Part shown: piece by piece, positions 3,735 through 27,421 of the stretch | Position numbering within the stretch: position 1 is the first letter of the stretch | Layout: every line of letters begins with the position of its first letter | Source: Cystobasidiomycetes sp. EMM_F5 | Lineage: Eukaryota | Assembly: GCA_051047955.1 (NCBI GenBank) | Contig: JBPGPT010000051.1 | Location: 62,001 to 89,984, forward strand | Reading direction: 5' to 3' | DNA length: 27,984 nt | Translations under genes and position numbers: made by a program | Notes under the pieces: model-generated | Database searches by the model: none | Seen by the model: the letters and a program-made list of their open reading frames with translations, nothing else | What the model was told of the DNA's origin: nothing

Positions 3735-3885
3735 TACCGCGACACACATACGCGATCACGAACACGAGAGGAGAGTCACAGGCTGAGTGCTAGCTGCGTC
3801 GACAATCAAACACTAAACAGCTGAGTACGAGAACGCGGCCCTCTTGCAATTTCGTCCACATCTACGAGCCGTGCGCACTCATATC

Positions 3886-5478
3886 ATGAAACTCGATGCC
3901 GAAGTCCCTGCGTCGTTCCCGAGAAAGTCAGCACAGCTTAGCAATGGTCACAAGTACGAATACATCGATGCCTGGCCAGACCATACTCGCCAATCGTCAC
4001 CCGTCAATACCGTGCTTTTACTGCATGGCTTTCCCGATTCTGCGAAAGTGATGCAACAAGGTGGACAGGATCCTAGGCTAATGCCGACTTTCTCATCCAG
4101 ATATGGGTATCGTTATGCTATCGTCGCGTTGGTTGCTGCTGGATTCCGATGCATCGCTCCATGGCAGCTCGGCTATTGGCCGTCGTCACAGCCGGATGCG
4201 ATAGAAGCTTATGGGTTCCGCAGTCTGAGCAGTGATATCGACGAGCTACTGACAATGGCGAATGTGAAGCGCAAGATTCTCTTGGTTGGCCATGACTGGT
4301 GTGTACGGGCGAACTAAAAGGTGCAAACCACTCTCCTGCAACTCTTGTTTGTGTGAAGGGGTGGACATCATGCATGGCGATTCGCAGCCTACTTTCCACA
4401 CAGAGTAGAGGCAATTGCAGTGTTAGTAACAAGCTTCCTGGTTGTCGACCCATGAGAATCCCTCGGATCAGTATAATGCATTGCAGATTCTGCACTCCGT
4501 ACACTCCTCCCGCTGCCGCCGGGACAGTCTTCATGGACACGAAGACTCTCGTAGACAATGGATTGAAGAACTTTGGTTACCAAGTAAGTCTTTTGCGCAG
4601 AATCGATACTGCATTGTGCATCTCATCGACACTCTTACTTTCTCAGCTGTTCTTCGGTTCGGATAGCGGAAGCGAACTCCTCTACAACAACGTGAGTTCC
4701 GTGACTTATCGAGTTGGTCCTGAGATGCTCAGAGTGTCCGTCAGCTGGATGTCTTCCTGGTCACATCGTTTGCAAAACGCAGGTCTGTTCCGTCAAGTAC
4801 CGACGGTGACGACAAGGATCTGATACAGCCGTCTGAGAGCAATCGACCTGCGATGGAACCGTGGTCGTATCCCGGCGTTCTCGAGGCCAAGTATCGTCAA
4901 TTTGAGAAAATGAGGAAGGCCGGGAAAATCGCGGTTCACATCCCGTCTGAAATCGAAGATCCAGTAGGCTGTGTATTATGTGTCTCGCTTGAATGCATCA
5001 AGCTTACGCGGTACGCAGGAACTTCACGTCTACCTCGACAGTTTCCGGCGGGGTGGTATAAAACACCCTCTGAATTATTATCGCAATCGTCGGGTCTGCT
5101 ACGATGAGGAGATTGGTAGCTTCGTCACCCTGCAATCATGGCAAGCAGTAGTGTTGATATTTGCTTCGACTGATAGACGCAGACCTGTCGCCGCAATTCC
5201 CTGCCTCAATTCCGGCGCTCTTTGTTACTGGAACGAATGATGCTGCTTTACCAACTTCCATGTCGGATCGATGTGGCCGCTTCTTCCAAAAAAATCAATA
5301 CACCCGTGTGATACTGCAAGATGCTACGCACTGGCTGCTGCAAGTGAGTCATGACAAATCGCTTCTCGCAAGCACTCCATCCTTACTGATGCGGTTGCAG
5401 GATTCGTCGCATCGCGACAAAGTATCTGCCATACTGAGTGCATGGGCGTGGGATAACAGCAGAAGCGCAAGGTTATAG
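3886..5478 (+). CDS. Alpha/beta-hydrolase, soluble epoxide hydrolase-like, multi-exon; C-terminal ARL (PTS1-like)
   Basis: HGFP oxyanion motif; spliced nucleophile motif GHDW|GG; FGYQ and PLNYYRN tyrosines; DAAL acid; ATHWLLQ histidine. Ends ...NSRSARL* at 5478. Confidence 0.85.
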
Positions 5479-8433: not shown

Positions 8434-9369
8434 TCATGCTGTCTTCTTGAATGGCGACGATTTTCTGTACTCCGTCCATGTTAATGGAGGATCAATTATG
8501 CCCAACTCTGCGCGCAGTTCAGCAACCTGCATATCCCATCTGTCTTCCCAACGAATGCCTATAACGGGCTTTGCAGCGCTGCCGCATCGCAACGCCCAGG
8601 GCAGGTACGTGTTGACGAGGCGTCGACGAGGACCGCTCCTCAATCGAAGAGGACCGAAAATGGAGGACAGCATAGCGACTGGCATGCCCATGTTTGCCAA
8701 CTCGAACCACTTGACAACCAATTCCGCGCTGACGCTGACTGGGAAGCCTAAAATTACGTGGTAAAAATCGTGACACTCGCGATAGCGTTGCATAATGTAC
8801 GCCAGTTCGGGATCGTCAATGTATCGCACCTAAAGACAGTCCGATCAGCATGTTTCTACGATGCTGGTACAGAGGCAGCTCACAGGATCCCTTGTATCAG
8901 GGCTTACTCCGCATTTGTCGAGCCAGTCTACATATGCTCTTCCGAATGTACCGTCTGCCAAATTCCGCAGCTTTGCAACGTCGATGGTTTCGCTTCGTAA
9001 GCGGGGTCGTTCAATTAGTAGCCTGCGACCTTCTTCGTCTCCTTTCAGCAATGTCTCGCGTATAGCAGGCAGTCGGCGACCGGCGGTCGTTTCCCCCAAT
9101 ACAGCCACCATGTCGTGACGATGTGGATCTACTAACGAGGTGACGGCAGATCCTATGGCAAGGAGACCGCGTTGAAATGCGTTAATTGAGACATGCCCTG
9201 GGTAAGCTGGCGCATGGACGGTGCTTGAACCGTAGCTTCGCGACCGAAGGCTGGATGCCGATTCAGGTCTCGTATGTGTGGACTGCATAGAGCTGGCGAG
9301 AGGACGTATAAAGAGTAGCCGGTTGATGTGAGAACAATTGCATAATGTTTTGGCTGCGTTTGTTGGCAT
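8434..9369 (-). CDS. COQ4: Ubiquinone biosynthesis protein Coq4
   Basis: DPHRHDMVAVLGETT, TFGRAY...VSPDTRDP|VRYIDDPELAYIMQRYRECHDFYH (HDxxH metal motif) and KWFE. One intron at about 8830-8885. Start codon uncertain. Confidence 0.93.
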
Positions 9370-9994: not shown

Positions 9995-12270
9995 CTATCG
10001 AAAGCCCAGACGCGGCAGGTTATGCCCTGTCAGTAGCTTCAATTCCAGCTCTGCAAGACAGACTTGAAGCTGGTTCTCCTTGACAGCTGCCCAGCCCTTC
10101 CGTCCTAATGACCATTCTGCCTGAAAGCCATTGGTTCTTTCTGTTATGTTTCTCGACAAATCCAGTATGACTCCGCCCGAGGGGCATGCAGCGGCGTGCC
10201 ACAACACTTGTCGATCGATTTTGCTTGCTTTTGAATCTTCTAAGACCATGGCGATTATGACGGTGAGATTTGATGTTGATAACCCGTTGCGTCCGTCCCA
10301 TTCCTCTATGGTTAGACCGTGACAATCCGGGTTGTTTTCCACATCGCCAAAACTGCAATTATGTATGTAGATGTGACCAAAGCCCAGTAAGTGCAGAGCC
10401 CAGATGGCTTCCCGCACCATATGACCGTGCAGCCTGAAAAGTAAAGCTCTGCTCATGACATTAGGCGCATTGACGGGTGACAGGTTTGCTGAAATTGCGT
10501 TGGCCATTGCCGCAGGAAGTAGGTTGTCATATAGCTTAGGATCGGCCCTGCAAATAGTATATCGACCCACGTACGACGCGGCTGGAGATACTTGACGCGG
10601 TTGGATGCCTGTAGTGCCTCCGCTGATCAGAGCTCCGCACGACAGCGAGTCCGACAGCCAGGACTCGTCATCAAGTGCACTATAGCTAATTGGCAAGTCT
10701 AGGGTGGATAACGCTTCTTGGATGTAACGCGGATCACGAAAAATCGTCTCGTTGTCATTGGTAGAAGTAATCGCTGGAAGTATGATGTTCCGTTGGACAT
10801 TAATGCCGGATGAATATAGTATGGCTTGGGCTTCGCGATACGAAATATGAGAGTGGGTCAAAACATCTGACAGAGCCCCGTGAGAAATGGGGGTGAAGTT
10901 CCAGTTTACGAGTACCGACATCCGACTGTGAAGCCCGCCGGCCAGTATAGATAAAGGCTTGTCGGCCTGGCCAAGTTGTAGGAGCACACTACTTAGTGAC
11001 ATGTAGGAAGCAGGCTGTGCGTGCTCAATCTCAATCCTGACCATGTCTGCGCCGCTCTCCACAGCACTGGCGTATAAGCGGGAGATAGTATTGGGTGTGC
11101 ACGTCGAGTCGTCCAGATACAGGCAGTAAAGTAGACGAAGACTTTTCGGCTTGGCAGCACGTATGAAAGCCAGACTATCAGGCGATATGTTCGCATCAAT
11201 GGCCAGATAATCTACTCCAAAGCGAAAGGCATCGAGAATCCGATTGACGTATGCGGCTTCCCTGTTTTCATCGTAATACGTCGTTCTTCCGAAAAGGGAC
11301 GACTTCAGGTTGCAGATCAACGGCAGACGAGAATGTCGACGAAGATAGGCAACGCCCAGAGCTGCAGTCAGATGATCTGCGGCAGTGGTACTTAGACCCG
11401 GAGTGGGTGGCGGTGAAAATCCAGAGAAACCGGCGAGACAGTCGAGGTATAACTCGATGACACTGGCGCCTGTGGTAGCGTCGGCTAGGACCTCTGGCGG
11501 CAACAAGTACGGCCGGGGCAGCTGGATCATTGTAGCATACGATCGGTGACGATGATCGATGCAGTGTTCAGGTAAATGCCCCAGCACATGTCGCAGAAAG
11601 CAAAGAAAGTCCCGCTCCACCGGCTTTAGCACCAATTGGCTGGGCGGGTACGCATGTCCGTCTTGACCGTCAGCACCATCAACGGAGATATTGATGTATG
11701 TATGACTGGCGACCTCGTTGTAATATGGCGTTCTGATATGCCAAACTACACAATGCATAGTGTTGATGTGTGGAATGCGTCAGCTCTGATAGACGTAAAG
11801 TGTAAAGCAGGCTCACGCTCTCGCACTCTCGATTCATCCATCCCGAAGACGATGCTAGTCGATGCTCGAAGTTCTGGAACGACGGTCTGTTTATCGCGGT
11901 GAATGTGAATGACCTTCCCGCCAGACTGGGAAAAGGCCTTAATGAGTTGACGGTTGTCCTCACGGTCGCATATTCCACCACCACATGCCACCACATATCT
12001 TTGCGCAGAGCGCGCCGCTGCATCATCCTTCGGAGGAATTGGCGATATCACGTTTACTAGTAAGTCATGTTCCAGTCGGTGAAAATCTTCCGCACCATGC
12101 AGCCGAATATAGTCAACGACAGACATGTTGAAACGGCGCGCAAGAGTCCGGTCAAGATCAAGTAGAGGCCATCCCAGTGCAGTCGCCGCGATGACAGCTA
12201 GAGTCGATTTGCCCACACCTGGCATGCCAATAATCAGAATGCTGTGGTTCATGTCGCTTTCCCACATCAT
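9995..12270 (-). CDS. qutR: Quinate-pathway repressor QutR/QA-1S-like: shikimate kinase-like + type I dehydroquinase-like + shikimate dehydrogenase-like domains (degenerate AROM C-terminal half)
   Basis: SILIIGMPGVGKSTLAVIAATALG P-loop and VVACGGG. Intron 11816-11746 (GTGAGC...GCTGAC...TGTAG) joins RVREL|WHIRTPYY. QutR-type blocks LKPVERDFLCFL, LRRHSRLPLI, EAQAILYSS, LSPVNA and ELKLLTG. Catalytic motifs of the last two domains are lost. Confidence 0.85.
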
Positions 12271-12767
12271 TCATGACGGCCAGCTTAGTCGCCGTAAAGG
12301 TCAATTGCAGCCAGACAGGGTCGAATGCGTGAAACGAGTACCGCCTATAGCCTCATAATCGCAGCATCTCGTATTTTGCCATAGGTTGTCTCGACAGTCG
12401 ACAATTGCTGTTGGTGTATGTGAGAGACAACATTGACCCGCCAACATATGTATGAATGGTATACAATTGCAGTGAATGTTACGACAAAGCAGGCCTCCGT
12501 GCAGTTCACTCAATGTTTATACATTGCTGGTCTACTATTGAGTCTGCGAAGCAGCGCTGAAAGATGCGCCTTGCCACCAAGCATCAATCATGTTGCTGAG
12601 GTTTTCTGTCGAGACTGCGTATGGCTCGCTTTGCGGCTGCAAAAGCGGGTCATCAAGATACCCGAGGGATGTGAGTACGTCAATCTCCTGCCTATGAATG
12701 CATAAATAAACATATTCGTCAGTCATTTGTGCTTTCTATTGGTAACGGTAGATTAGTTCTAGTCCGC

Positions 12768-15253
12768 TCACCACTCTTTTCCAATGACAGCTGGTGGACC
12801 GTCTAGAGGCTCGGAAAGTAACGCATCCCATGCGCGTGAGTCTGTCTGTGGTGTGATAGTAGTTGACGGTGCTGTGAAGTGCCGTAATGTGAGTGCTAAG
12901 GGATCGATTTGTTCTCCGGCAGCAGTAACACGATCGTCAGAAGATGGAAGACCCGAAGAATAAGATGTCGCGGGTATGGGAAAACTTTGCGGACTCAGCG
13001 TCAGATTGGGTGACAATCTGCCAGCGCACAGCATGTCCAGCTGATCGATGTGGCGCGGCAAAAGCTGATTATATTGCCTGAGAGACTCTCTGGCCAGCGC
13101 GACGAGAGTAGCTGGCGGCGCAACGTCATCCGTCATGGCGTTGATAAGTATCCCAAGCGGCAGCATTGATGCCCACGCATAGGATCTGAAGCAAGTGAAT
13201 AGGCGTAAGCGTGTATCGAGAAGTGTGGATGCATTGTGATAGACTGCTTGTCGCAAATCATCCAAATGTCGTCTGCGGTGCACAAGAGTCATCAGAGAGC
13301 GTCTCGTGTAGGCCATACAACTTACACTTCTCGACAAGTCAGAAGAACTAAGTAGAGTCGTATTGCATGTGCATCCAGCACGTGTGGAGGGGCGTCGACG
13401 TAGAGAGCAGGCGTGACATTCTCCATGCTCCGCTCCGCTGCGGCTGAAGCTCTTTGGATATCATTGTGACGTAACGAAGTCAGAATATCCATGCCCAGGC
13501 AGCTTATACTGCTCAAAAAATCGAGATTGATTAACGCTCGAGACGAGCAGATTAAGCTCGCATCGGAAGGCGAGTGCCAATTTCCCGCATAGTGAGATGC
13601 TAGGCTTCTTGCAGACTCGCACTGCCAAATCTCGGAGTCCTCCCGTCCATCATTAATCCGGAAAACGCTTCTCTTGCCATCGGGGATTAGGCACTTGAGG
13701 CCATACTGCGTGGCAAGCAAAAAATCTACGATGCATATGCAATGCCATGCACGGGAGCGAGCTTCAACATGTGATGATGCCACCGACAGTGGATCTTCAT
13801 CAATATTGATGTCAACAGCTCCCGCAATGCAGCAAGCTATTGAGGAGATGTCAGGCCGATTCAGTGGTGGAAGGGTCTGATGCCTACCTAGATAATCTCT
13901 TGCTCGGGATTTGAGGCCTGCTCCCCAAGCCCAGACGGTTAAGAGAAGCAGGGCTTGAATGCTTTCAAGAGAGACGCTGCAGGATGAGGCCAGAAGTACT
14001 TGGACAGCCGCATTTGCATATTGTACAGCTACGCCGTTTTCGATTTGCATGTAAGGTGCCGTAACGACGGTCATCGCATTCGTCAGCGCAGGGTGCATGT
14101 CTCCTTCCGTTCCAGCTTTGGAGAATGACCATCTTAGAACAGTCTGCCTATCCAACAATGGGAGAAATGGATGGAAGTAGGTAAGGAAGAAATTGGCGAC
14201 CTTGGTGCGATTTTGCGGATTCTTGTTCGGCAGTGTATTTGTAACAGGGCAGAAAAGGGTGAGTTCAGATGACTGAATGGTAGTTGATTTGTGAAATCGG
14301 TGAAATCCGCTGGAAATTTCGTACGATCGTGGTTGTGTTGTAGGATGTAGCGGCTTTGCTACGTTGCTGGTCGATACAGTTCCAGACAACGAAGCGGCCG
14401 AAGCATCGGAAGTGCCAGCAGGCCTGGACTGCAAGAAAGGGACTGTTACCGGAATCTGCTTTGCTTCAGATTGGGCGTCCGTCAAAGGATCTGACGTGCT
14501 GACTCCGGAAGTAGACAGCAAATCGTCTGGGAAGAAAAGATCGTCTGGGAGACCAACATTCTCGCTAGGAAGGAAAGCTTTGGGCAAAGGAACGGATGAG
14601 TGCACTTGGCCTGATCTACCGGAATTGATCATGGGGGGCTCATTCGTGACTTGCATTGAATTCTCATAGTCGAGATCGTAAACGGTGTCCCCGAAGATTT
14701 GAGAGACCAACAGACGTCTAAAGCGTTGCTGTTTCTCCGCGCTCACACCAACAGTGATGCCGGCTTGTTCTGTAAAGATGTTGATGGCTGTAGGTAAGCC
14801 TGCTGGCGGGGCGCTCAGGGCGCCGTCAGCATGACAGCGAAGTATGGAATCGCTCGCGATAAGTAGAGTGGGGTACAGTCTCCATATATCGTATAAGTGG
14901 CATTCCAGCCTCGCCGTCCGGGCAGCTAATTGCTTGAATGGTGGTGGTCCACGCCGCTTGCTTTCAGACCAGGCGCATTCAGCATCGACAGCTCTGCAAG
15001 TTCCGCAATGTGGTACGACACCGTCGCATCTGATGCGCTGTGTGGATTTATGAATGTCAGGACTACAGATTCAACGTTTCCGTGGTGTGGCTTTGACGGA
15101 GTGTGACACCGATGCGAAGGGCGAGAAAGCCTTTGACGCCGTCAAATACAAGCAGCCCACCTTTGTTCGGCATCGCTGGCAAGATTGGCGCACCCGCTTC
15201 CGCTTGGTACTGCCAACGCTGGTACTCGTGGCCGAATCCACTGGCGTATCCAT
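12768..15253 (-). CDS. Zn(II)2Cys6 fungal transcription factor, probable QutA/QA-1F-like cluster activator
   Basis: KRKRVRQSCQRCRTK|RIRCDGVVPHCGTCRAVDAECAW (six Cys; intron 15160-15038), followed by KRRGPP. Fungal TF middle homology region FFLTYFHPFLPLLDR ... RSRAWHCICIVDFLLA. Two further introns near 13838-13888 and 13273-13325. The qutA assignment rests mainly on adjacency to qutR. Confidence 0.85.
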
Positions 15254-15891
15254 ACTGCTACAGAAACGTTTGAGATGGTTTCACGGCGCCATTTCGCTTA
15301 TTGACAGCTTCAGCCGGTTGGATACCTCCATACGGTCGCTGTATTCGGTTGTCGCGAGATCATCATATCTTTACTAATAACCATTGAAGTCGGTGTACTG
15401 TACAACTAATATACAAGATGACGACTCCTGAATCGTACATCGAGATTCGCCAGCACAAATGCACGACAAACATCCACGACGAGCAGCAGCAGCTCACCAA
15501 ATGCTGACAACGGCTCTGATATTGACTACAATCACCAGCCCGCAAATGACCCATTCAGGTTTCCGCACAGCCATATATATTTTCATTAATGTCCGAGCAC
15601 AGCTGAAGGATGCGAGAGATATTGCTTTCGAACGACATGGTTCAAAGTCACTAAGTACCCGGCTCGCGACCCTTGTACGTTCTGGGGCATCTGAGTTATT
15701 TGCCGCACGCGCGACTACATTTGCACGTCGAATAATGCAGCTTCTTACACGTGACTGTGGACGGATAAAAGGCAACCGCGCGGACAGCACGAATTGGGTG
15801 TTGGAAATCCGGCAGTACTTACGGCTTGCGTTCATATCACTCATTTATCGAAGCTTCAACCCTGTCGACAATACCCTCTTCGGCCTACAAT

Positions 15892-17331
15892 ATGACATCC
15901 TTCTGCGAGAGGCGACCGGAGGCTGGCCCCGAACAAGAGCGGACTCAAACTGCTATCTATGGTGTAAGCAGACAGCGCTTGATAGTGCAGATCACTATCC
16001 TGATATGCTGTCGCCAATGCGGGCCGCTGCGTGCAAATGACAGAGCCCGATCTCCCACACGGTTGCCCCAAAGCTTTTCGACATAATATTTCCGGCATTG
16101 GGATTACCGAGATTCAAATATACATGGCATGACTGCCCTACCCTAAACGACCCCAATGCAACGTGGATAGTCGATATGAAGAAACCGCAAACACTTGGTA
16201 GTTGTGTTACTATGCCATTAAAGGTAAGTCAAGCAACGCTGGACGATTGTGAACGCAGCCATTCTCATTATACTCTTAGTTTGATGTCGTACCATTTATG
16301 GATGAGATTACACAACAGGCCAGAACTGTCGGCAGCGTGAACACGACTTATTTTAGGGAGAATGTGGACGGTACTGTCGTTCATGTGGGAACGAATCTGG
16401 ATGTGGCGGGTGTCGGCAACTCGTTACACGCCGCACTCGTAGGACACCCAACGCCCATGCCCGCGGGTACACCATCGAGATTCGCTTCCGGGAAGGCGGC
16501 ATCCTTGATGATTGGCGGCGGTGGGGCCACACGCGTAAGCTACGATTTTGTATTCACTCGTTCGTGGCTGATGAATTTGCGCAACAATTTTGCCGACAAT
16601 ATCCGTGACTGGTGTGAATCATTACGTCTCATGTCCCGCGGGTCCTGACAACAGGCTGCAATTTTTGCAATGAACAAGCTTGGTTTATCACCTATCCTTC
16701 TTCTCAATAGAGATGCCGGTGAAACGTGGGTTCGCCATAGAATTGGCACTCGTGATGCCGCTGCTAAAGTGATAGTTGCCGAAATAGGGAAAGGACAGTC
16801 GCCCAATTCCCTGAACTGGACTTGAGACCTTTGGCTACGGTTGCAGACGCCGAGCAAGTCCTTCAAGAGCTTAACAGCAGAGGTATCAAGCTGTGCGCCG
16901 GTGTCGGAGCAATTCCAAGCATAGAGCCTCAGTCAGCTGCAGAAAAAACAGTCTATGAGATCGCGAAGACCTTGTTCTCTTTCCCTTACAGCCCACATCC
17001 AAGTGACGGTACAAGTGAAGGTGCAAGTGAAGATGATTCCATGGGTCTGCCTCCTCAGCCTTGCTTCCTGGAGATGGCATACAAGCCAAGAATGACAATT
17101 ATGCGCAAGATTGCTGAAGGCTTGAATTGGCGTACCATCTGCGGTGTCGAAGTAGTGCTTGAGGGCTGCGTGAGTCATTATGCGTTACTCTCCGTACACT
17201 TTAATGCTGATGTTACCGACCGTAACAACGATGTTTGGACCACTCAGTTCGAACAAGCATACCTGTGGACCGGAAAAGAAGTAGATTTCCAGACGCGGGA
17301 AAAAGGACGAGCGCTGCTGAGAGCGGAGTAG
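15892..17331 (+). CDS. qutB: Shikimate/quinate 5-dehydrogenase 1 (QutB/QA-3-like, predicted NAD+-type)
   Basis: Spliced TAIYG|SPISHTVAP (intron 15964-16043), VTMPLK (catalytic Lys), VGSVNT, GTNLD (catalytic Asp), IGGGGATR, LLNRD, FLEMAYKP and FEQAYLWTG. Confidence 0.8.
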
Positions 17332-17552
17332 GATTTTGTTTGATACTTGTATTGTTGCCCGTACGTTGAATGCTTAGTGGCATGATGAATATTACACAAC
17401 ATCGCAAGCAGGATATAATCAACGCTTGGCAGTCTTCTGCTATGGCATTACAGCTGCACACACGGCAACAAGTACAGTAGGCGGCACCCGGGCATCATGA
17501 GAGGCTATCGCGCAATGATGAAAACAGGAGCTACATATATAACAGTACATGC

Positions 17553-18827
17553 TCACAGTTGTAGGGCTTTCCTCAACGTCAACCAGCTCTGCCAGCCGCG
17601 CTTAGCGTGCTTCTCAGGGATGTTATCGTTGCTGACATGGCAGAATCGGTTAAACAATTCAAAACTTTGCAATATGTCAGTTACAGCTGCTGTCCACTGC
17701 GGCATCACTGTCCTGACCTGATGAACCCAGTGAAGCCCATGTCAACGAAGGCTTTCGCAACCCGCTCAATTGGCATGTATGCACCCTTGTCCGTCTCGTA
17801 AGGGAACAAACGGCAATTGCGGGACCAGCTCATGTAGGGTTGCTGCCCTTCCACGTGATAAGGACTACTGCTCCCAGATCCAAGTGGAATGCTCAGTCGT
17901 TCTGCATCGACAAGCTGCACATAGAAGATCTTATTGGCTGGAATGCTTGTAACAAGTTCGCTCAACGATCTTGCAAGTCGTTGCTCGCCATCCTCGCGAA
18001 CACCACCTTCGACTGTGGGGTCGGCATATTCGTAGGCCGCAATATGGAAAGCATCCAAGACCACGCCGAAGTTTGGGCGATCCACCGCTTTGACCACTTC
18101 CCAGCCCTGTTGCCAAGTGTAGTTGAATGTCGACCAACACATCGCTTCGTAAACGAAACGAATTGGAGGCGCATGACGCGCTCCGATATCCTAATTATTT
18201 TCGAAGCGGTAAGAATGTCTGAGGGATGCTGCGGAGATCGGGATGGAAACCCTTCGGACCTACCGCAATTTCCTGCAAGTCGCGCACAATGTCGGCTTGA
18301 TTGCCAGTGATTCCAGCATCCAAACGGAAGTTTGCAGGGATCTGCATCATATCGGTCCCTAAACAATTGCAGAGCTGTGGATAAACAAAAATCAGAAAGT
18401 ATCAACCCACACGCCGAGTCAGCACGGCAACTCCATACCTCCATTCTGAATGAGATCTCTTCGACCCTGGCTCCATGGTCCGCACTGTCCCTTATACCAT
18501 CGTAGTTCAAGATGGGCTGTAGTACAACGATAGTTAAGCCATATTTGGTTGCCAATTCCTTCACTTCTGTAGCCGCTTTCTTCAGATTATCCCTAGTGGC
18601 TACATCTGTCCCTCGTTTGGCCATGTGCTCCAGATCCATATAGAACACCTGTTCATCAAACATTGAAGAATCCAGTCTTCACACCGTAGCCGCAGACCAA
18701 TATACTCAGTGCTCACCTCAATCGCAGTGAAGCCAGCGGCAGCAGCTGCGGCTAGCTTTTCTGCCATAGTATAGCCAGCCGAATTAAATCCGAGGGACAT
18801 CGTGGGTATGCAGGGTATGTAGCTCAT
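17553..18827 (-). CDS. qutC: 3-dehydroshikimate dehydratase (QutC/QA-4-like; xylose-isomerase-like TIM barrel)
   Basis: MSYIPCIPTMSLG...KLAAAAAAGFTAIE|VFYMDL, IVVLQP, FVYEAMCWST, VDRPNFGVVLDAFHIA, IFYVQLVDA, WSRNCRLFPYE and FIS|FELFN. Predicted E/D/Q/E metal ligands are present; last exon ends ...RKALQL* (TGA 17555-17553). Confidence 0.9.
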
Positions 18828-19186
18828 TGTCAAGGACTTGTGACAGTTTGAAAGCGAGCTTCAAGTCCAGTGAAAAGACAACCGATGCGGGACAAGCACA
18901 AGGATGAGCAGCGTGTGGGATATGTTGGACGATATTGACGTTGATGCGGAACCATGGGAGATTGGCAAACAGATTTTGGGCTGCGGCTGCGTTTGTGATT
19001 CTCCTGCGACGGTTCATCATGTCACGTGTTTCAACGGCAAATCTGGAGGTTTATCCGGTTCTTCCAGCGGTGTGTGGATTCGAAAGGCGGAGTGAACAAC
19101 GAGAGCAACACGCGAAGAAGGCTACAGTACGGTATGCCATTCCTTTTGCGCCTTTCACCTAAGCCATTCAGGTAAAAACCGCCATA

Positions 19187-20363
19187 ATGCCAGATACCAC
19201 GGACGCAAATCCAGGCAAGACAGTCATCGTTTCGCAGTTTCAGGGCTGGTCTCACCATGACGCGAATGCTCTTCAGTATTCAACGACTCTGCGAAACAAT
19301 TTTGGGTTATTGGCTTTCCTATCAAGCAGTCGAAGTCCCCGTTGATCCACAACACGGGCTACACTGCAGCTGGCCTGCCGCACAAATTCGACATTCATGA
19401 AGTGAGATCGCTTGGTCCGGAGATTGGCAGAATGTTTGCAGATCCGTAGGCATTGTCAAGATTACATTCGACGTCATGGCTGACTATGCATGTACAGAAT
19501 CTTTGGTGGCGCTGCTATCACAATGCCATTCAAGGTCGATGTTATGCAATTCATAGACGAAAAGACGGCATCTGCAAGCGTCCTCGGTGCCTGCAACACC
19601 ATTATACCGTCGACAAAGCATGGGTCTCCCATTCTGATTGGGGACAATACCGACTGGGTGAGCCATCTGAGCAGATTGCCGGACGGAAGAGCTAAAGCCG
19701 AGTGTTTAGCTTGGAATGCATACCGTCTTGCAGAAGGGTTTACTCGCAGCGCATCGCCGACAAATCGATGATCCAGCATTGATAATTGGCGCTGGAGGTG
19801 CCGCCAGGGCTGGCAGTGAGAAGACACGGCCCGACCAGACTGGAGAGTTCCGGAGTGACTGATACAATCTTCCGACAGTTTACGCACTCGGGCAGCTTGG
19901 CGTCAAGTATGTATACTTGTATAATCGTACCCACAGTAAGATCGGGGAAATCATTCGAGATTTTGCAAACTACCCTATCGAAATAATTCCGATTTATAGT
20001 CTTGTGAATGTCGAATTTGCCAAAGGAGATCCAATTTTTGTCGTAGGGACAGTGCCAGCAAAGGGAACAAGCATCACTGGAGATGGACAGCCGTCCGACA
20101 ATACTATACAATTGTCAGCCGAGATCTTCAAACGTCACGATGGCGGTGTAATGCTCGACATGGCGTACCTCCCGAAACGCACACCTCTGATCAAGCTGGC
20201 TGAACAAAACTCTTCGTGGGTTACAAATCCTGGCATCGACGTTCTTCTCGGTCAAGGGTTTGCGCAGTTCAAGATCTGGACAGGCGTTGATCCAGCAACA
20301 GAATTGATTACCGAGGCGGTTCTCGCCCAGTATGAAAAAGAACAAGCGGCGATTAGTGCTTAA
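19187..20363 (+). CDS. Shikimate 5-dehydrogenase 2, stand-alone, AroE/AROM-domain-like (predicted NADP-type)
   Basis: FWVIGFPIKQSKSPLIHNTG, FGGAAITMPFK, LGACNTIIP, IGDNTDW, LIIGAGGAARA, YLYNRTHSK, GGVMLDMAYLPKRTPL and PGIDVLLGQGFAQFKIWTG. The first exon (ATG 19187) is inferred via a GC-AG intron. Confidence 0.85.
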
Positions 20364-21494: not shown

Positions 21495-23056
21495 ATGTCG
21501 CTATCCAAAGGCCGTGTCCTTCTGGCCTATTCTGGCGGACTGGGTAGGCACAACACTTGAATCGAGATACTTGTTTATCGCTTGAAATTGCAAGCAACCT
21601 GCTCTCCCATCCCGCTCACTGATTCACCTGTTCACTGTTTTATGCAGACACATCGTGTATTCTTGCATGGCTCATCGAATTGGGATACGAGGGTCAGGGA
21701 TCAGATTCGTTGAGCCGGCGAGGCCTGTGCTGACTGCAAAATCTCCGCAGTCGTCGCTTTCAGTCAGTCAGCCAACGCACTGTATATGGCACAAGCTAAC
21801 ACTGGTCCCATGTTATGTGTGTGTCCTGCCAGTGGCTGACCTTGGCCAGGAAGAGGATTTCGATGCCGCTCGCGAAAAGGCACTCAAGGTTGGAGCGAAA
21901 AAGTTCTTCCTTGAAGATCTCAAGCGAGAATTCGTCGAGCATCTCATTTACCCTGCTGTCCAAGCCAATGCTATTTACGAGGGCGTCTACCTCTTGGGAA
22001 CATCGCTAGCTCGACCTGTGATAGCGCGAGCGATGATTGCGGTTGCAGAACGTGAGGGCTGCCAGTAAGGACTGTAGTACCGCTTTCGTCATAGGTATAG
22101 GTTGCTGACTCATCGTGATGAGATTTGTGTCGCATGGCTGCACGGGCAAGGGAAATGATCAGGTCCGTTTCGAGCTAGCTTTCTATGCCTTGAAACCAGA
22201 CATCCAGGTCATTGCTCCGTGGCGAATGCCGGAGTTCTTCGATCGGTTCGCTGGACGTCAAGCTCTCCTTGACTTCGCCGCAGCAAAAGGCATTCCCGTG
22301 TTTCAGACTGCTGCGAAACCCTGGTCGACCGATGAGAACCTCTTCCATATAAGCTACGAAGCAGGAATCCTGGAGGATCCAGACACTACGCCCCCCGCAG
22401 ATATGTGGAAATTGACAAAGTCAATCGAGAATGCTCCCGAAACTCCAGAGCGTATTTCACTACATTGGTCGAAAGGGGTTCCCACCAAATTGGATCTCGA
22501 AAGCAAGAAATCTATTACCGATCCTGTGGAAATATTCCTCGAACTTAATGCCATTGCCCGTAAGCACGGTGTGGGTCGCATCGATATTGTCGAAAATCGC
22601 TTCATCGGAGTTAAATCCCGAGGCTGCTATGAATCACCCGGTGCAACAATTCTTCGTAAAGCTCATATGGATCTGGAAGGGCTAGTTTTGGATCGTAACG
22701 TCCGTGCGCTGCGCGACAACTTCGTAACTATCGAGCTGTCCAGGATTCTTTATAACGGTTACTGGTTCTCACCGGAGCGTGAATTTGTGCAATCGTGCCT
22801 TGCAGCTTCGCAAAAGGTGGTGAATGGTACCGTTCGTCTTGCTCTATTCAAGGGCAACGTCATTGTTGAAGGTCGCTCCTCGGAAACCGCCGCGTTGTAC
22901 GATGCGAAGCAGTCTTCCATGGATGAGCTGGGTGGCTTTCAACCCACTGACACCTCTGGATTCATCAAAATTGAGGCCATTCGTTTACGCAAATGGGGCG
23001 AAGCTAGAGAGAAGGGTGGCCTCTCAACGGAGCCTAAGGATGTATACCAACAGTGA
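21495..23056 (+). CDS. ARG1: Argininosuccinate synthase
   Basis: MSLSKGRVLLAYSGGL|DTSCIL, YLLGTSLARPVIA, SHGCTGKGNDQVRFE and VENRFIGVKSRGCYESP. Four introns, including two flanking a 12-nt exon at 21751-21762. Confidence 0.97.
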
Positions 23057-23696: not shown

Positions 23697-25148
23697 ATGT
23701 CTTTCCGTATATTCCTCATCGGAGCTACAGGATACATCGTAGGTCATCAATATTGCTTCGGCATTCAATGCGATCGTTCGCACGACGTGACTCTAGCATG
23801 TCCAAGCAGTGCAATACGCTGACGTCGTCGTCGTATTCAACCAAGGTAGGGAGGCAGCGTTCTGTATAGACTGCTGCAACGAGAAGATGCTTCTGAATAC
23901 AAGATTGTAGGCGTAACAACATCTTGCGACTTGCTAATTGCACACAGCTGAGTCTGTCACGTCGGAATCTACTATGCTGCTCCTCTAGGTGGTTCTTATA
24001 CGGGATGTCAAGAAAGCACCGGGCTTCAACGAAATCGGCGTCGAGACCGTGATTGGCGACTTCTCAGCTCTAGATCTCATACGTCAAGAGTCCGCAAAGG
24101 CCGATATGGTCATATCCATCGGGGACTGTGATGATCTCAATAGCGTTACAGCCATGTTGGAGGGTCTCAAGCAGAAGAAGGATCGCACCGGGAGATTATA
24201 TCCCCTTCTCCACACAGTGGGCGTTTTCATTTACGTCTGCACCGCCGTCATAGACTGACGACCCGCGGGCAGAGCGGAACAGGCGTCTTCACCACGCTGT
24301 CAGGAGGGTCAGGACCTACACCTAGCGATCCAATCTACGACGATAGCGACGCCGACCAGCTCGAAAGTTTGCCGAAGTCGGCTTGGCACCGTGAAGTCGA
24401 CTTGGCCATAGTCGAGGCACACGTACGGTCGGAATGCATCTCCTACATCATCCTGCCATCGACAATATACGGTCAAGCGACCGGCGATTTGGGCAAGGGG
24501 CAGTGGAAAGGTAAATTGATGAATCGCCAGAGCCGGCAGATCCCTATTGCCTGTCAATTGGCTCTGCAGCGCGGCCAACCAGGAGTCGTCGGAGAAGGAA
24601 AAAACGTATGGCCCGAAGTTCAGCTTGACGATCTGCTGGAACTTTACATGATCCTGTTCGATTTGGCGAAAGAAGGCAAAGGAGATACTGGCAGGGACGG
24701 CTATTACGTTGCAGAGAACGGCCAGTGAGCAGGTGTCTTTGGCGCTCGCGCGGTCATTCACGTAGGCTAATCATGCAATCACTCAGCTACGAAAACCTGC
24801 AAGTAGCGGAACAAATTGGCATCGCAATGAAGAAAATGGGCCTGTCGGAAGCGTCGGACGTTAAGCCATACACTCCGCAAGAACTTGAAGAGGTGGTAGG
24901 GAGCGCCATGGTCAGTACTTGACAGATCCCTACTATATTTGCTCTAAACTGAATAATATTTACAACCCAATTGTATGTAGGTCCCAGTTGTCGGTTCCAG
25001 CTGTCGTTGCGTATCTACGAGATCTCGTAAATTTGGATGGAAGCCCAAGCACGGCATCAAGCACTTTTACGACTCAATTGACGACGAGCTGCGTGCTGCA
25101 CATGACCAGCTTCGCGAGACTGGCGGAAAAGGTACCCGGAAATGGTAG
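23697..25148 (+). CDS. NAD(P)-binding Rossmann-fold protein, NAD-dependent epimerase/dehydratase (atypical SDR) family
   Basis: MSFRIFLIGATGYI|GGSVLYRLL, LLHT|SGTG, HREVDLAIV, IILPSTIYG, GEGKNVWPEVQLDDLLELY and GYYVAENG. Last exon VGSSCRCVSTRSRKFGWKP...KW* (TAG 25146-25148). Confidence 0.85.
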
Positions 25149-25887
25149 ATTGACTGTAGATATTAGACCGTCATATGAAGGTACGGCTTGCGTCATATAA
25201 TCCTGTATGCAGCAAGTCAATAAGCATCTCCTTTTGCGCGACTTCCCTGCGCCTTCAAGCACACATTGAAGCGAGTAAAGTAAGCATGTTGCGATCATCA
25301 CCGGGACCATCTTGTTGCGCCCTTCGAAGGTAATGAAGCTTCGTGCGTATGCTTGAAAACCGTGTCACATTCGAAGTATGTCGCAATCAGTCGCGCGACC
25401 CACCGTCTAGCATATCAGGCTACACTCAGTTAAACTTCAGCTTTTCTCAGCTCAGTCAGTCTAAGGGTGAGCAAGAGCCTCGCCCTCTTGCCAAAAGCAA
25501 GCTGTAGGCCGTCGTTCAGAAGCTACATCCAACCGCAAAGTTGAACCGGCGAATCTACGTATACGGATGTATACCGTGACGGCAGAAAAGTCGTTGCAGT
25601 GATGAAGGAAAGACGCTCAAAGAGAGCCATCGGTGTGCATAGTTGCACGAAATATTAGCTTCCCCGTGGCTACAGCGATAATCGGAGTGCACAGTAGATG
25701 GAGGCCGAGGCATGGCTTTTAATGGTTTCTGAAGACTGAAGACAGTAGGGCATCAAATGCGGAAGTTTTTCCGAGAACGCAAGCAATTCCAATCTAGCTC
25801 CAAACCACGCTGACTAAAGGACCCGCTCTTTAGGCTCACATAACTAGATGGCGAGGTGGCGGAGTGTCGCACCCGCCGTGCACTCCG

Positions 25888-27421
25888 TCAATAGCGAGAA
25901 GTGTTGAAAAGTTCAGCCTCATCGAATGGCAAGCTCTCGCGCCGAGCACGACCTGCGGCATATCCACCAAAGTCGTTCACTCCCGAAGCGCTAAGCTCGT
26001 CAATACTGCCGTATCCACCGAGTCCACCACGTACAGACGCCTGACTCCCGCGACGACTCCTGGCGTAATCACCGAGACTTCCACTGCTGTGATGATTGTT
26101 GTCGCCATCTCCCAAACCTACATTATAGTCGGTGGGGAAAATCCGCATGTATGAACTCCCATGGCTCGCACTGCCAATACCGAGCGCGGCGGCTTCCGCC
26201 AGCATTGCGTCTTCTCCAAGAAGATCTGAACCCAAGGCTCCGCCCGAAAGAAAGGGACTAGGATTTCCGACGCTGCGAGACCTGGCGTGTGTATAGGGGA
26301 GAGCTAAAGAGTCCGAGAGCATGGGCGAATGTCCGCTGCGACCATGCAGTGACATCGATGGACTGCTTATGACCCCGCTCGGCTGCAATTGCACAAGAGA
26401 TGAGCACGTAGATCTTGGGGTCTCGCTTATCACACTTACCGTCATACTGAGCTTTCGCAGGCGTTGTTCTAACTCCGCGTCATACCCTTCTTGTCGTTCA
26501 CGCTCTCTAATAACTTGTTCTGCGCGACTCAACGCGTTGTCCCGCGCAAGGAGCCGTGATCTATCGTCTAGCTCGCGTTCCCGAGCCCTGATTTGTCGGT
26601 CTTGGGCTGATAATTCCAAAGCTGATGCGCGCTGTCGTAGTGCGTTTTCCTTTGAGATCTGTAGGGCAGCTTCTCTGTTCAACAGGGCCGCCTTACGTTC
26701 GGCCAAACGAATCTTCTCCAGTGCCAACGCGGAGTCCGGGATGGCATGATGTCCGACATTGGATATTGCGCGCACACGCGGTGTTGCTCCGGCTGCAGCA
26801 AACATACGAGCTTCTCGATCACGTTGCTGCAAGGCCATTGCTGTAGACTGATTCATGCCAGCAATGCCCGCCATGCCTGGATGACCGACACCAAGCCCAT
26901 AACCTGCTCCGAGCATTGCTCCATGCGATGACACTGCTCGAATTCTCGGAGTTGCAATGCTCATTGCTGGACTTAGAGAACCAAAAGACGACCCGTGTGA
27001 ATCGACAAGACGTGCGTTACGCTCCGCCTCAAGAAGCGCCAGGCGTTCGTGGTCTCGGGCGCCGGATAAAGCTCTACTGTGGCTTTGCGCATGCAGCAGT
27101 GCTTGATTAGCGTGCATGTTACTGCGTTCGATTTCTTCGACCTTGTGTAGCCGTTCCAATTCGTGATGTAGTTCCCGTTTCTGTAGCAGACCGTAGTAGC
27201 GATGGGAGCCACTCTTAGCAGCAGTCTCAAAGCGTAGAAATGTACGACTACCCACTTTGGTACGCTCAAGATCCTCCAACCTGTGCAGCTCATGCTTTTG
27301 CACCTGTTCAGCACGGCTTGGGGCGGTCCACCCGCGTGCGCTAACGTCCAGGAGTCCTAGAATGCTGTATCATCAGCAGCACCTCGTGTATGAAGCGTGC
27401 AGGAGTATTGTGCGCACCCAT
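25888..27421 (-). CDS. Uncharacterised protein with charged coiled-coil segments and G/S-rich disordered regions
   Basis: Long 471-codon open frame containing two in-frame intron-like stretches (GTGGGT...TACAG after ERTK; GTAAGT...TGCAG after KLSMT). Inferred first exon MGAHNTPARFIHE starts at ATG 27421. No family recognised. Confidence 0.7.

Follow-up and report, generated by a model that had tools for sequence, protein, structure and literature searches.

Among the described systems, those closest to the locus reported here are the qa cluster of Neurospora crassa and the qut cluster of Aspergillus nidulans, in which an AROM-derived repressor gene lies beside a gene for a Zn2Cys6 transcription factor and is linked to a quinate/shikimate dehydrogenase and a 3-dehydroshikimate dehydratase of the qa-4 family, as listed in PMC12610400. 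That source, together with PMC6528562, sets out the proposal that such a repressor inhibits its activator until a ligand releases it (QutR/QutA, GaaX/GaaR), and PMC10512348 and PMC6528562 place activator-repressor modules of this kind in filamentous ascomycetes and regard the way in which they evolved as unsettled. We report the analysis of a comparable five-gene cluster in a stretch of 27,984 nucleotides (the window; GenBank assembly GCA_051047955.1, contig JBPGPT010000051.1, positions 62,001 to 89,984 of the forward strand). It encodes a repressor-like protein (REP), a Zn2Cys6 transcription factor (TF), two dehydrogenases (DH1 and DH2) and a putative 3-dehydroshikimate dehydratase (DSD). A basidiomycete host had been suspected, and the NCBI label on protein EMMF5_006148, which is 100% identical to REP exon 2, agrees: Cystobasidiomycetes sp. 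EMM_F5, whose class we take to belong to Pucciniomycotina.

We consider it probable that the cluster is an inducible regulon for the conversion of quinate and shikimate to protocatechuate, under the control of a QutR-like sensor and inherited within Pucciniomycotina. The catabolic route is suggested by the families and residues of the enzymes and the control circuit by analogy with QutR and QutA; REP has the sequence features of the QutR family, and the cluster would work like the qa/qut system. The original prediction placed five contiguous genes between COQ4 and ARG1, together with two divergent promoters, and the spliced models and Pfam matches bear this out: all five genes are intact on the expected strands, each translation has a single terminal stop and both divergent intervals are present (Table 1). 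The introns, which are predictions from the sequence (one in REP, two in TF, five in DH1 and four each in DSD and DH2), measure 52-123 nt and are GT-AG throughout except for one GC-AG (DH2 intron 1); another in-frame acceptor is possible for TF at 13185.

REP is a stand-alone version of the last three AROM domains in their order, shikimate-kinase-like, type I dehydroquinase-like and shikimate-dehydrogenase-like. Pfam recognises SKI (E 8e-20) and DHquinase_I (E 5e-13), and BLAST against the C-terminal half of AROM covers residues ~10-730. A fold from the single sequence was poor (predicted local distance difference test, pLDDT, 38.8) and an alignment-based AlphaFold model of exon 2 was used instead (pLDDT 85.8; predicted template-modelling score, pTM, 0.89), which matches the shikimate kinase (SK), dehydroquinase (DHQase) and shikimate dehydrogenase (SDH) domains of Candida albicans Aro1 with template-modelling (TM) scores of 0.74-0.75. 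Catalytic positions were mapped by alignment to AROM rows, 11 of 11 of which are invariant at the sites tested. At the dehydroquinase site of REP the catalytic His is replaced by L362 and the Schiff-base Lys by R388; the SDH set (Ser, Ser, Thr, Lys, Asn, Asp, Gln) is gone; the kinase P-loop K21 and Mg-binding D40 are retained. REP, which derives from AROM, is catalytically degenerate at these residues. The REP and TF genes stand head-to-tail, 497 bp apart. The predicted pairing of an AROM-derived protein of repressor type with a Zn2Cys6 factor is upheld as far as the degenerate residues and the adjacency of the two genes go, with the repressor function itself drawn from analogy. A prediction of the complex between REP exon 2 and the last exon of TF, folded without alignments, scored 0.00. 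The 505-amino acid NCBI model of the REP gene (P0001) was set aside because the kinase exon is missing from it and its C-terminus is spliced differently, whereas the read-through end aligns to the end of AROM, and that annotation is probably wrong. The same organism has a second AROM-derived, repressor-like paralogue of 730 amino acids on another contig (EMMF5_001986; P0170), in which the dehydroquinase Lys is kept and the His is not.

A HMMER scan with REP against 1.84 billion representatives gave 49 matches including REP itself, and a word-index search returned REP alone. Twenty of the relatives were looked up and the six that carry organism names are all from Pucciniomycotina (the same-organism paralogue, Leucosporidium, Phenoliferia, Rhodotorula araucariae, Atractiella and Meredithblackwellia). 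In trees built by FastTree or LG+G4 quick searches, which have long branches and no reliable root, REP and its Pucciniomycotina relatives form one group. It takes in 17 of the 42 rows of a first tree (support 99), from which five rows had been removed as short, redundant or repetitive, and 10 of the 26 rows of a second (support 99). All repressor-like rows lie on one side of a branch that separates them from the AROM rows, the named ones of which are all from Agaricomycetes (Shimodaira-Hasegawa-like approximate likelihood ratio test, SH-aLRT, 100). The comparison clade is one that we take, from features of QutR, to consist of Pezizomycotina repressors, and nesting REP within it is rejected by the approximately unbiased (AU) test (p 1e-4). 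REP carries the motif L[STA]P[AIVS]NA, as do 13 of the 16 rows of its own clade and 7 of the 8 presumed Pezizomycotina repressor rows, as against 0 of 81 AROM-length rows, and a second motif is found in 7 of 16, 6 of 8 and 1 of 81 rows, respectively. The one-sided branch and the two shared motifs lean towards a single origin of all the repressors, ascomycete and Pucciniomycotina, in trees whose named AROM rows come from Agaricomycetes alone, whose branches are long and whose models are simple. Three rows on the repressor side (P0137, P0147 and P0154) keep much AROM sequence and yet carry variants of the repressor motifs; they are possible intermediates between enzyme and sensor.

The three enzymes define the likely route. 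DSD matches AP_endonuc_2 in Pfam, shares five conserved motifs with the N. crassa dehydroshikimate dehydratase, to which its largest exon is 50% identical, and joins the Pucciniomycotina side of a 36-row tree with an SH-aLRT of 100; the identity of the same exon to 14 named Microbotryomycetes proteins, which come from 10 species, is 54-69%. A Pseudohyphozyma relative (MNV49_001589; P0015) joins a DSD to DyP-type peroxidase domains in an 876-amino acid model, either a real fusion or a merged annotation. DH1 reaches the Shikimate_dh_N family in one exon, below the curated cut-off, and is 54-62% identical to its 13 best matches, 12 of them named Microbotryomycetes proteins; it groups with Pucciniomycotina homologues in the tree. 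The nearest Atlas clusters to the relative P0205 are fungal stand-alone SDH-like proteins, and no named qa-3 or QutB protein occurs among the 120 matches listed. DH1 retains the catalytic Thr-x-x-x-Lys, Asn and Asp and, in common with most of its 13 best matches, has an NRD loop, which in this family suggests the use of NAD as an NRT loop suggests NADP; it is a putative NAD-type catabolic (quinate) dehydrogenase. A DH1-side dehydrogenase was also seen in Pseudozyma hubeiensis (PHSY_001191; P0257) and, as this species is in Ustilaginomycotina, the DH1 family may extend beyond Pucciniomycotina. DH2 matches Shikimate_dh_N and SDH_C in Pfam and has TIGR01809 as the best NCBIfam match on all three of the exons scanned; every catalytic and substrate residue is intact and the loop is NRT, so that it is probably an NADP-type shikimate dehydrogenase. 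It is as close to AROM SDH domains as to stand-alone Rhodosporidiobolus proteins, and its grouping with the cluster-linked Rhodosporidiobolus proteins is weak (support 88, with a long-branch warning).

In the scheme that we envisage, quinate would be oxidised by DH1, for which NAD is the probable cofactor, and the resulting dehydroquinate would be turned into dehydroshikimate by a dehydroquinase, either a type II enzyme or AROM, whose gene lies outside the cluster; DSD would then dehydrate the product to protocatechuate. DH2 would feed dehydroshikimate straight from shikimate, probably with NADP, and uptake would be through an unlinked permease. REP, in which the three C-terminal AROM domains would survive without activity, would keep the adjoining Zn2Cys6 factor inactive until a pathway intermediate binds it, upon which the freed TF would drive both divergent promoters. 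Such control would stop DSD from draining dehydroshikimate away from aromatic amino acid synthesis. TF has the Zn_clus and Fungal_trans (PF04082) domains, an architecture that is common and not diagnostic, and its six-cysteine spacing is complete once the gene is spliced. The pattern CGGRTAA, drawn from a presumed Qa-1F consensus, occurs four times in the window (3.46 expected), which is at chance level, and two of the four lie inside the two divergent intervals. The occurrence of CGGATAA in both of these is a weak lead to a candidate binding half-site.

Linkage in relatives was read from locus-tag numbers and equal contig sizes, both of which are proxies. By the first, five of 10 named species have a DSD no more than three locus tags away from a gene of DH1 or DH2 type, and three of these have all three genes together: R. 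poonsookiae, which has the window's own order (000353, DH2 type; 000354, DSD; 000355, DH1 type), R. lusitaniae (120/121/123) and R. ruineniae (6237/6239/6240). DH1 is near DSD in P. psychrophenolica (5488/5489) and R. nylandii (566/569), and contigs of equal size make Pseudohyphozyma the sixth species with linkage; of the remaining species, two have their matches on different contigs and two have no dehydrogenase among the 120 matches listed. The contig size is the same (90,476) for one repressor-like and two DH1-type proteins of Leucosporidium. The supposed rarity of the cluster does not survive these linked homologues in several Microbotryomycetes, and it appears instead to be a lineage-wide, undescribed Pucciniomycotina branch of the qa/qut system. 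Thirty-three metagenome loci were also considered, of which the four with a fungal-type DSD (L001-L004) were examined and the 29 weaker matches were checked by tblastn. L004 carries DH1 followed by DSD and overlaps L002 by 54 identical bases, and in L003 a DSD faces a DH2; CGGRTAA is absent from L001-L004. The starts of L004 (1-40) and L001 (1-45) resemble the pattern of sequencing-adapter read-through, and for this reason these contig ends are unreliable.

Several observations weigh against this interpretation as a quinate/shikimate regulon. The cluster was predicted to be self-contained, which it is not on present evidence: equivalents of the type II dehydroquinase (qa-2/qutE), the permease (qa-y/qutD) and qa-x/qutG were not found in the 33 of 110 listed window open reading frames (ORFs) covered by the Pfam scan, and the five models leave no gap of more than about 1.1 kb between COQ4 and ARG1. 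The lack of a dehydroquinase in the cluster is not fatal because A. niger without its type II dehydroquinase grows unimpaired on quinate, according to PMC12610400; it does, though, suit a system for shikimate only, for which DH2 and DSD would be enough. In the substrate pocket of DH1 the second Ser is changed to Ala and the Gln to Gly, and since both substitutions are common to most of the 13 best matches, and are thus family-wide, its substrate may differ. The ligand site of REP is unclear too: REP no longer has certain kinase- and dehydroquinase-pocket Arg residues found in the majority of its clade, and the SDH Lys/Asn/Asp, present in eight of eight presumed ascomycete rows, are lacking in the whole Pucciniomycotina repressor-like clade. 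Furthermore, the paralogue EMMF5_001986 could be the true quinate sensor, Rhodosporidiobolus species have two or three DSD paralogues each, and quinic acid is not assimilated by Cystobasidium iriomotense, a member of the same class (PMC6135397). In Phenoliferia psychrophenolica and Meredithblackwellia the repressor-like protein is on a contig of a different size from that of DSD. In A. niger (PMC12610400) the same type of module serves galacturonate and gallate, and a fourth, orphan module (NRRL3_07604/07605) is by gene number beside a DSD paralogue; NRRL3_07603-07605 is not induced by quinate. The same regulatory logic might be applied to another cyclitol or hydroaromatic acid through the altered pocket of DH1, or to shikimate alone, and we regard this as unlikely. 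DSD retains the N. crassa motifs and DH1 its catalytic residues, and near the regulator-like pair of Rhodotorula toruloides are a gene resembling qa-x and a dehydrogenase that BLAST labels as QA-3 (PMC7873862), all of which counts against this alternative.

A second and distinctly less probable alternative is that the catabolic trio is real and REP and TF are not its repressor and activator, REP being a scaffold, a residual kinase or a regulator of other genes and TF an unrelated neighbour. The retained P-loop Lys and Mg-binding Asp would allow for this. TF fell only in generic Zn2Cys6 clusters of the Atlas, from which no orthology to QutA or Qa-1F emerges. Neither a repressor nor a TF match was found in the metagenome loci L001-L004, so that the trio enzymes stand there without a detected regulator (L002/L004 and L003). 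Against it, the catalytic pair of the dehydroquinase and the entire SDH set have gone from REP, linkage is not needed for control (A. niger qdhA is unlinked from its regulators and yet under their control; PMC12610400), and a Zn2Cys6 gene adjoins the repressor-like gene in two classes, here and in R. toruloides.

The R. toruloides locus bears on both alternatives. In the annotation of PMC7873862, RTO4_13705 (Zn2Cys6) is 484 bp from RTO4_13706 (kinase plus dehydroquinase I) on scaffold_4, followed by NOP16, an inositol monophosphatase and two dehydrogenases (RTO4_13705-13710); a PF01261 gene and two permeases that share 55% identity with qa-y lie ~40 kb further on (13727-13731). The DSD candidates 9106 and 13728 are apart from RTO4_13705-13710, and the type II dehydroquinase is on another scaffold. 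The same source has 13706 as non-essential and separate from AROM, its metabolic model treats 13706 as an enzyme and its main text is silent on the gene. Insertion in 13706 lowers fitness on coumarate (-1.80), ricinoleate (-1.72) and ferulate (-0.99), with growth on glucose spared, and the strain is positive for quinic acid in Biolog. The loss of fitness could be counted for the second alternative; it would also fit a derepressed DSD draining dehydroshikimate, as ARO3 mutants likewise lose fitness on coumarate (-1.09). The spread of the repressor family in Pucciniomycotina suggests that RTO4_13706, whose family is judged from annotation and which is compared here by description, is a regulator rather than an enzyme, and RTO4_13705-13710 with 13727-13731 appear, from the annotation, to be an unrecognised qa-like locus.

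The locations of the cluster genes, the divergent intervals and the two flanking genes are given in Table 1.

Table 1. Features of the cluster and its immediate flanks (positions are those of the window)
Feature	Position	Strand	Remarks
COQ4, flank outside the cluster	8434..9369	-	Pfam Coq4, E 4e-37 and 2e-50
REP, QutR/Qa-1S-like pseudo-enzyme, 734 aa	9995..12270	-	exons 12270-11817, 11745-9995; N-terminus uncertain
TF, Zn2Cys6 transcription factor with fungal-specific domain, 769 aa, putative activator	12768..15253	-	exons 15253-15161, 15037-13326, 13272-12768
TF/DH1 divergent promoter interval, 638 bp	15254..15891		CGGATAA at 15762-15768
DH1, shikimate/quinate dehydrogenase fold, 347 aa	15892..17331	+	six exons
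DSD, putative 3-dehydroshikimate dehydratase (qa-4/QutC family), 338 aa	17553..18827	-	five exons
DSD/DH2 divergent promoter interval, 359 bp	18828..19186		CGGATAA, minus strand, 19051-19057
DH2, probable stand-alone AROM-domain-type shikimate dehydrogenase, 315 aa	19187..20363	+	five exons
ARG1, argininosuccinate synthase, flank outside the cluster	21495..23056	+	Pfam Arginosuc_synth, Arginosuc_syn_C; start read from sequence

The ORFs in the gaps between COQ4 and REP and between DH2 and ARG1 have no Pfam match, and a repeat scan found no terminal repeats at the ends of the cluster. The word 'inserted', which the original prediction used of the cluster, is stronger than these data allow. An exact look-up of one ARG1 exon produced no match. 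Elsewhere in the window, an alpha/beta hydrolase gene that is epoxide-hydrolase-like by eye lies at 3817-5478 between SHE9 and ASE1, a multi-exon plus-strand gene at 23900-25200 resembles by eye an NAD-binding epimerase/NmrA-like protein (two of its exons have no Pfam match), and a minus-strand ORF of 493 codons at 25888-27369 consists of low-complexity sequence with much Ala, Arg and Glu and has no Pfam match.

As to the origin of the cluster, it is very improbable that an ascomycete qa/qut cluster was recently acquired by horizontal transfer and then remodelled. In favour of such an event are a gene content like that of the ascomycete cluster, an identity of ~50% between DSD and Pezizomycotina proteins and the lack of any Agaricomycete stand-alone homologue among the named matches, but DSD, DH1 and REP all group with Pucciniomycotina, the AU test stands against REP nesting with the presumed Pezizomycotina clade and the GC content at third codon positions is alike in the cluster genes (0.50-0.56) and the flanking exons (0.47-0.58). 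Of the two origins that had been put forward, ancient retention and horizontal acquisition, the first is thus favoured by the trees and the second, in the form of a recent event, is not; a very old transfer into the Pucciniomycotina ancestor is possible and, because the trees have no reliable root, is indistinguishable from descent. Asch et al., in work of 2021 on the evolution of the qut genes, are said to have reported these genes absent from the basidiomycetes surveyed. The suggestion that a basidiomycete qa-type cluster had not been characterised before is in keeping with the full-text literature, in which we found no description of such a cluster or of its repressor, within a coverage that leaves most subscription journals outside; none is described in the accessible parts of 10.1101/184242, PMC11381361, 10.1101/2023.06.06.543907, 10.1101/675652, PMC4466345, PMC9027234 and PMC12891635.

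A broader and rather doubtful proposal is that the AROM-derived sensor-repressor has a single origin, older than the divergence of Ascomycota and Basidiomycota, and that the Pucciniomycotina branch was then rewired: the SDH-domain pocket would have been discarded, TF may be unrelated to QutA/QF, several sensors would have come about by duplication and the two-dehydrogenase cluster would admit quinate and shikimate separately. If this were true, the branch would represent a 'Q-system' in its own right, with its ligand bound at another site, and the repressor would be the protein that the published R. toruloides model lists as an enzyme. The spread of the repressor family over three Pucciniomycotina classes would make its origin far older, or point to a very old transfer, and the family offers a natural comparison for the question of which dead domain binds the inducer; the kinase and dehydroquinase arginines are mostly retained across the Pucciniomycotina group. 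A regulatory role for RTO4_13706 would correct the metabolic model and may explain the defect on coumarate, and basidiomycete yeasts could gain from the system a quinate-inducible switch. Neither the biochemistry nor the logic of the regulation is new in itself; both are textbook matter.

In comparison with the N. crassa qa and A. nidulans qut clusters, then, the window differs in its basidiomycete host, its tandem regulators, an additional AROM-type dehydrogenase and the lack of a qa-2, qa-y or qa-x equivalent in the ORFs scanned. The tandem arrangement, which the original prediction offered as a novelty, is not one, as gaaR and gaaX of A. niger are already head-to-tail (PMC10512348). The A. 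niger pairs GaaR/GaaX, TanR/TanX and NRRL3_07604/07605 likewise have a Zn2Cys6 gene adjoining an AROM-derived repressor; these modules are known from Pezizomycotina, and the target genes of Gaa and Tan are unlinked. REP falls outside the clade presumed to hold repressors of the A. niger type and, in contrast to the presumed ascomycete repressors, has hardly any sequence ahead of its kinase domain and no longer carries the SDH-pocket residues. With the C-terminal half of AROM it shares the SK-DHQase-SDH order and the fold; unlike AROM, it is without the two N-terminal domains and the catalytic residues, is only 22-26% identical and has motifs that are nearly absent from the AROM rows. DH2 is like the AROM SDH domain, with 37-44% identity. 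The R. toruloides locus RTO4_13705-13710 differs from the window in its extra inositol monophosphatase and NOP16 genes and in having its DSD candidates and permeases apart, and it resembles the window, by annotation, in the Zn2Cys6 gene that adjoins a kinase/dehydroquinase gene with two dehydrogenases near by.

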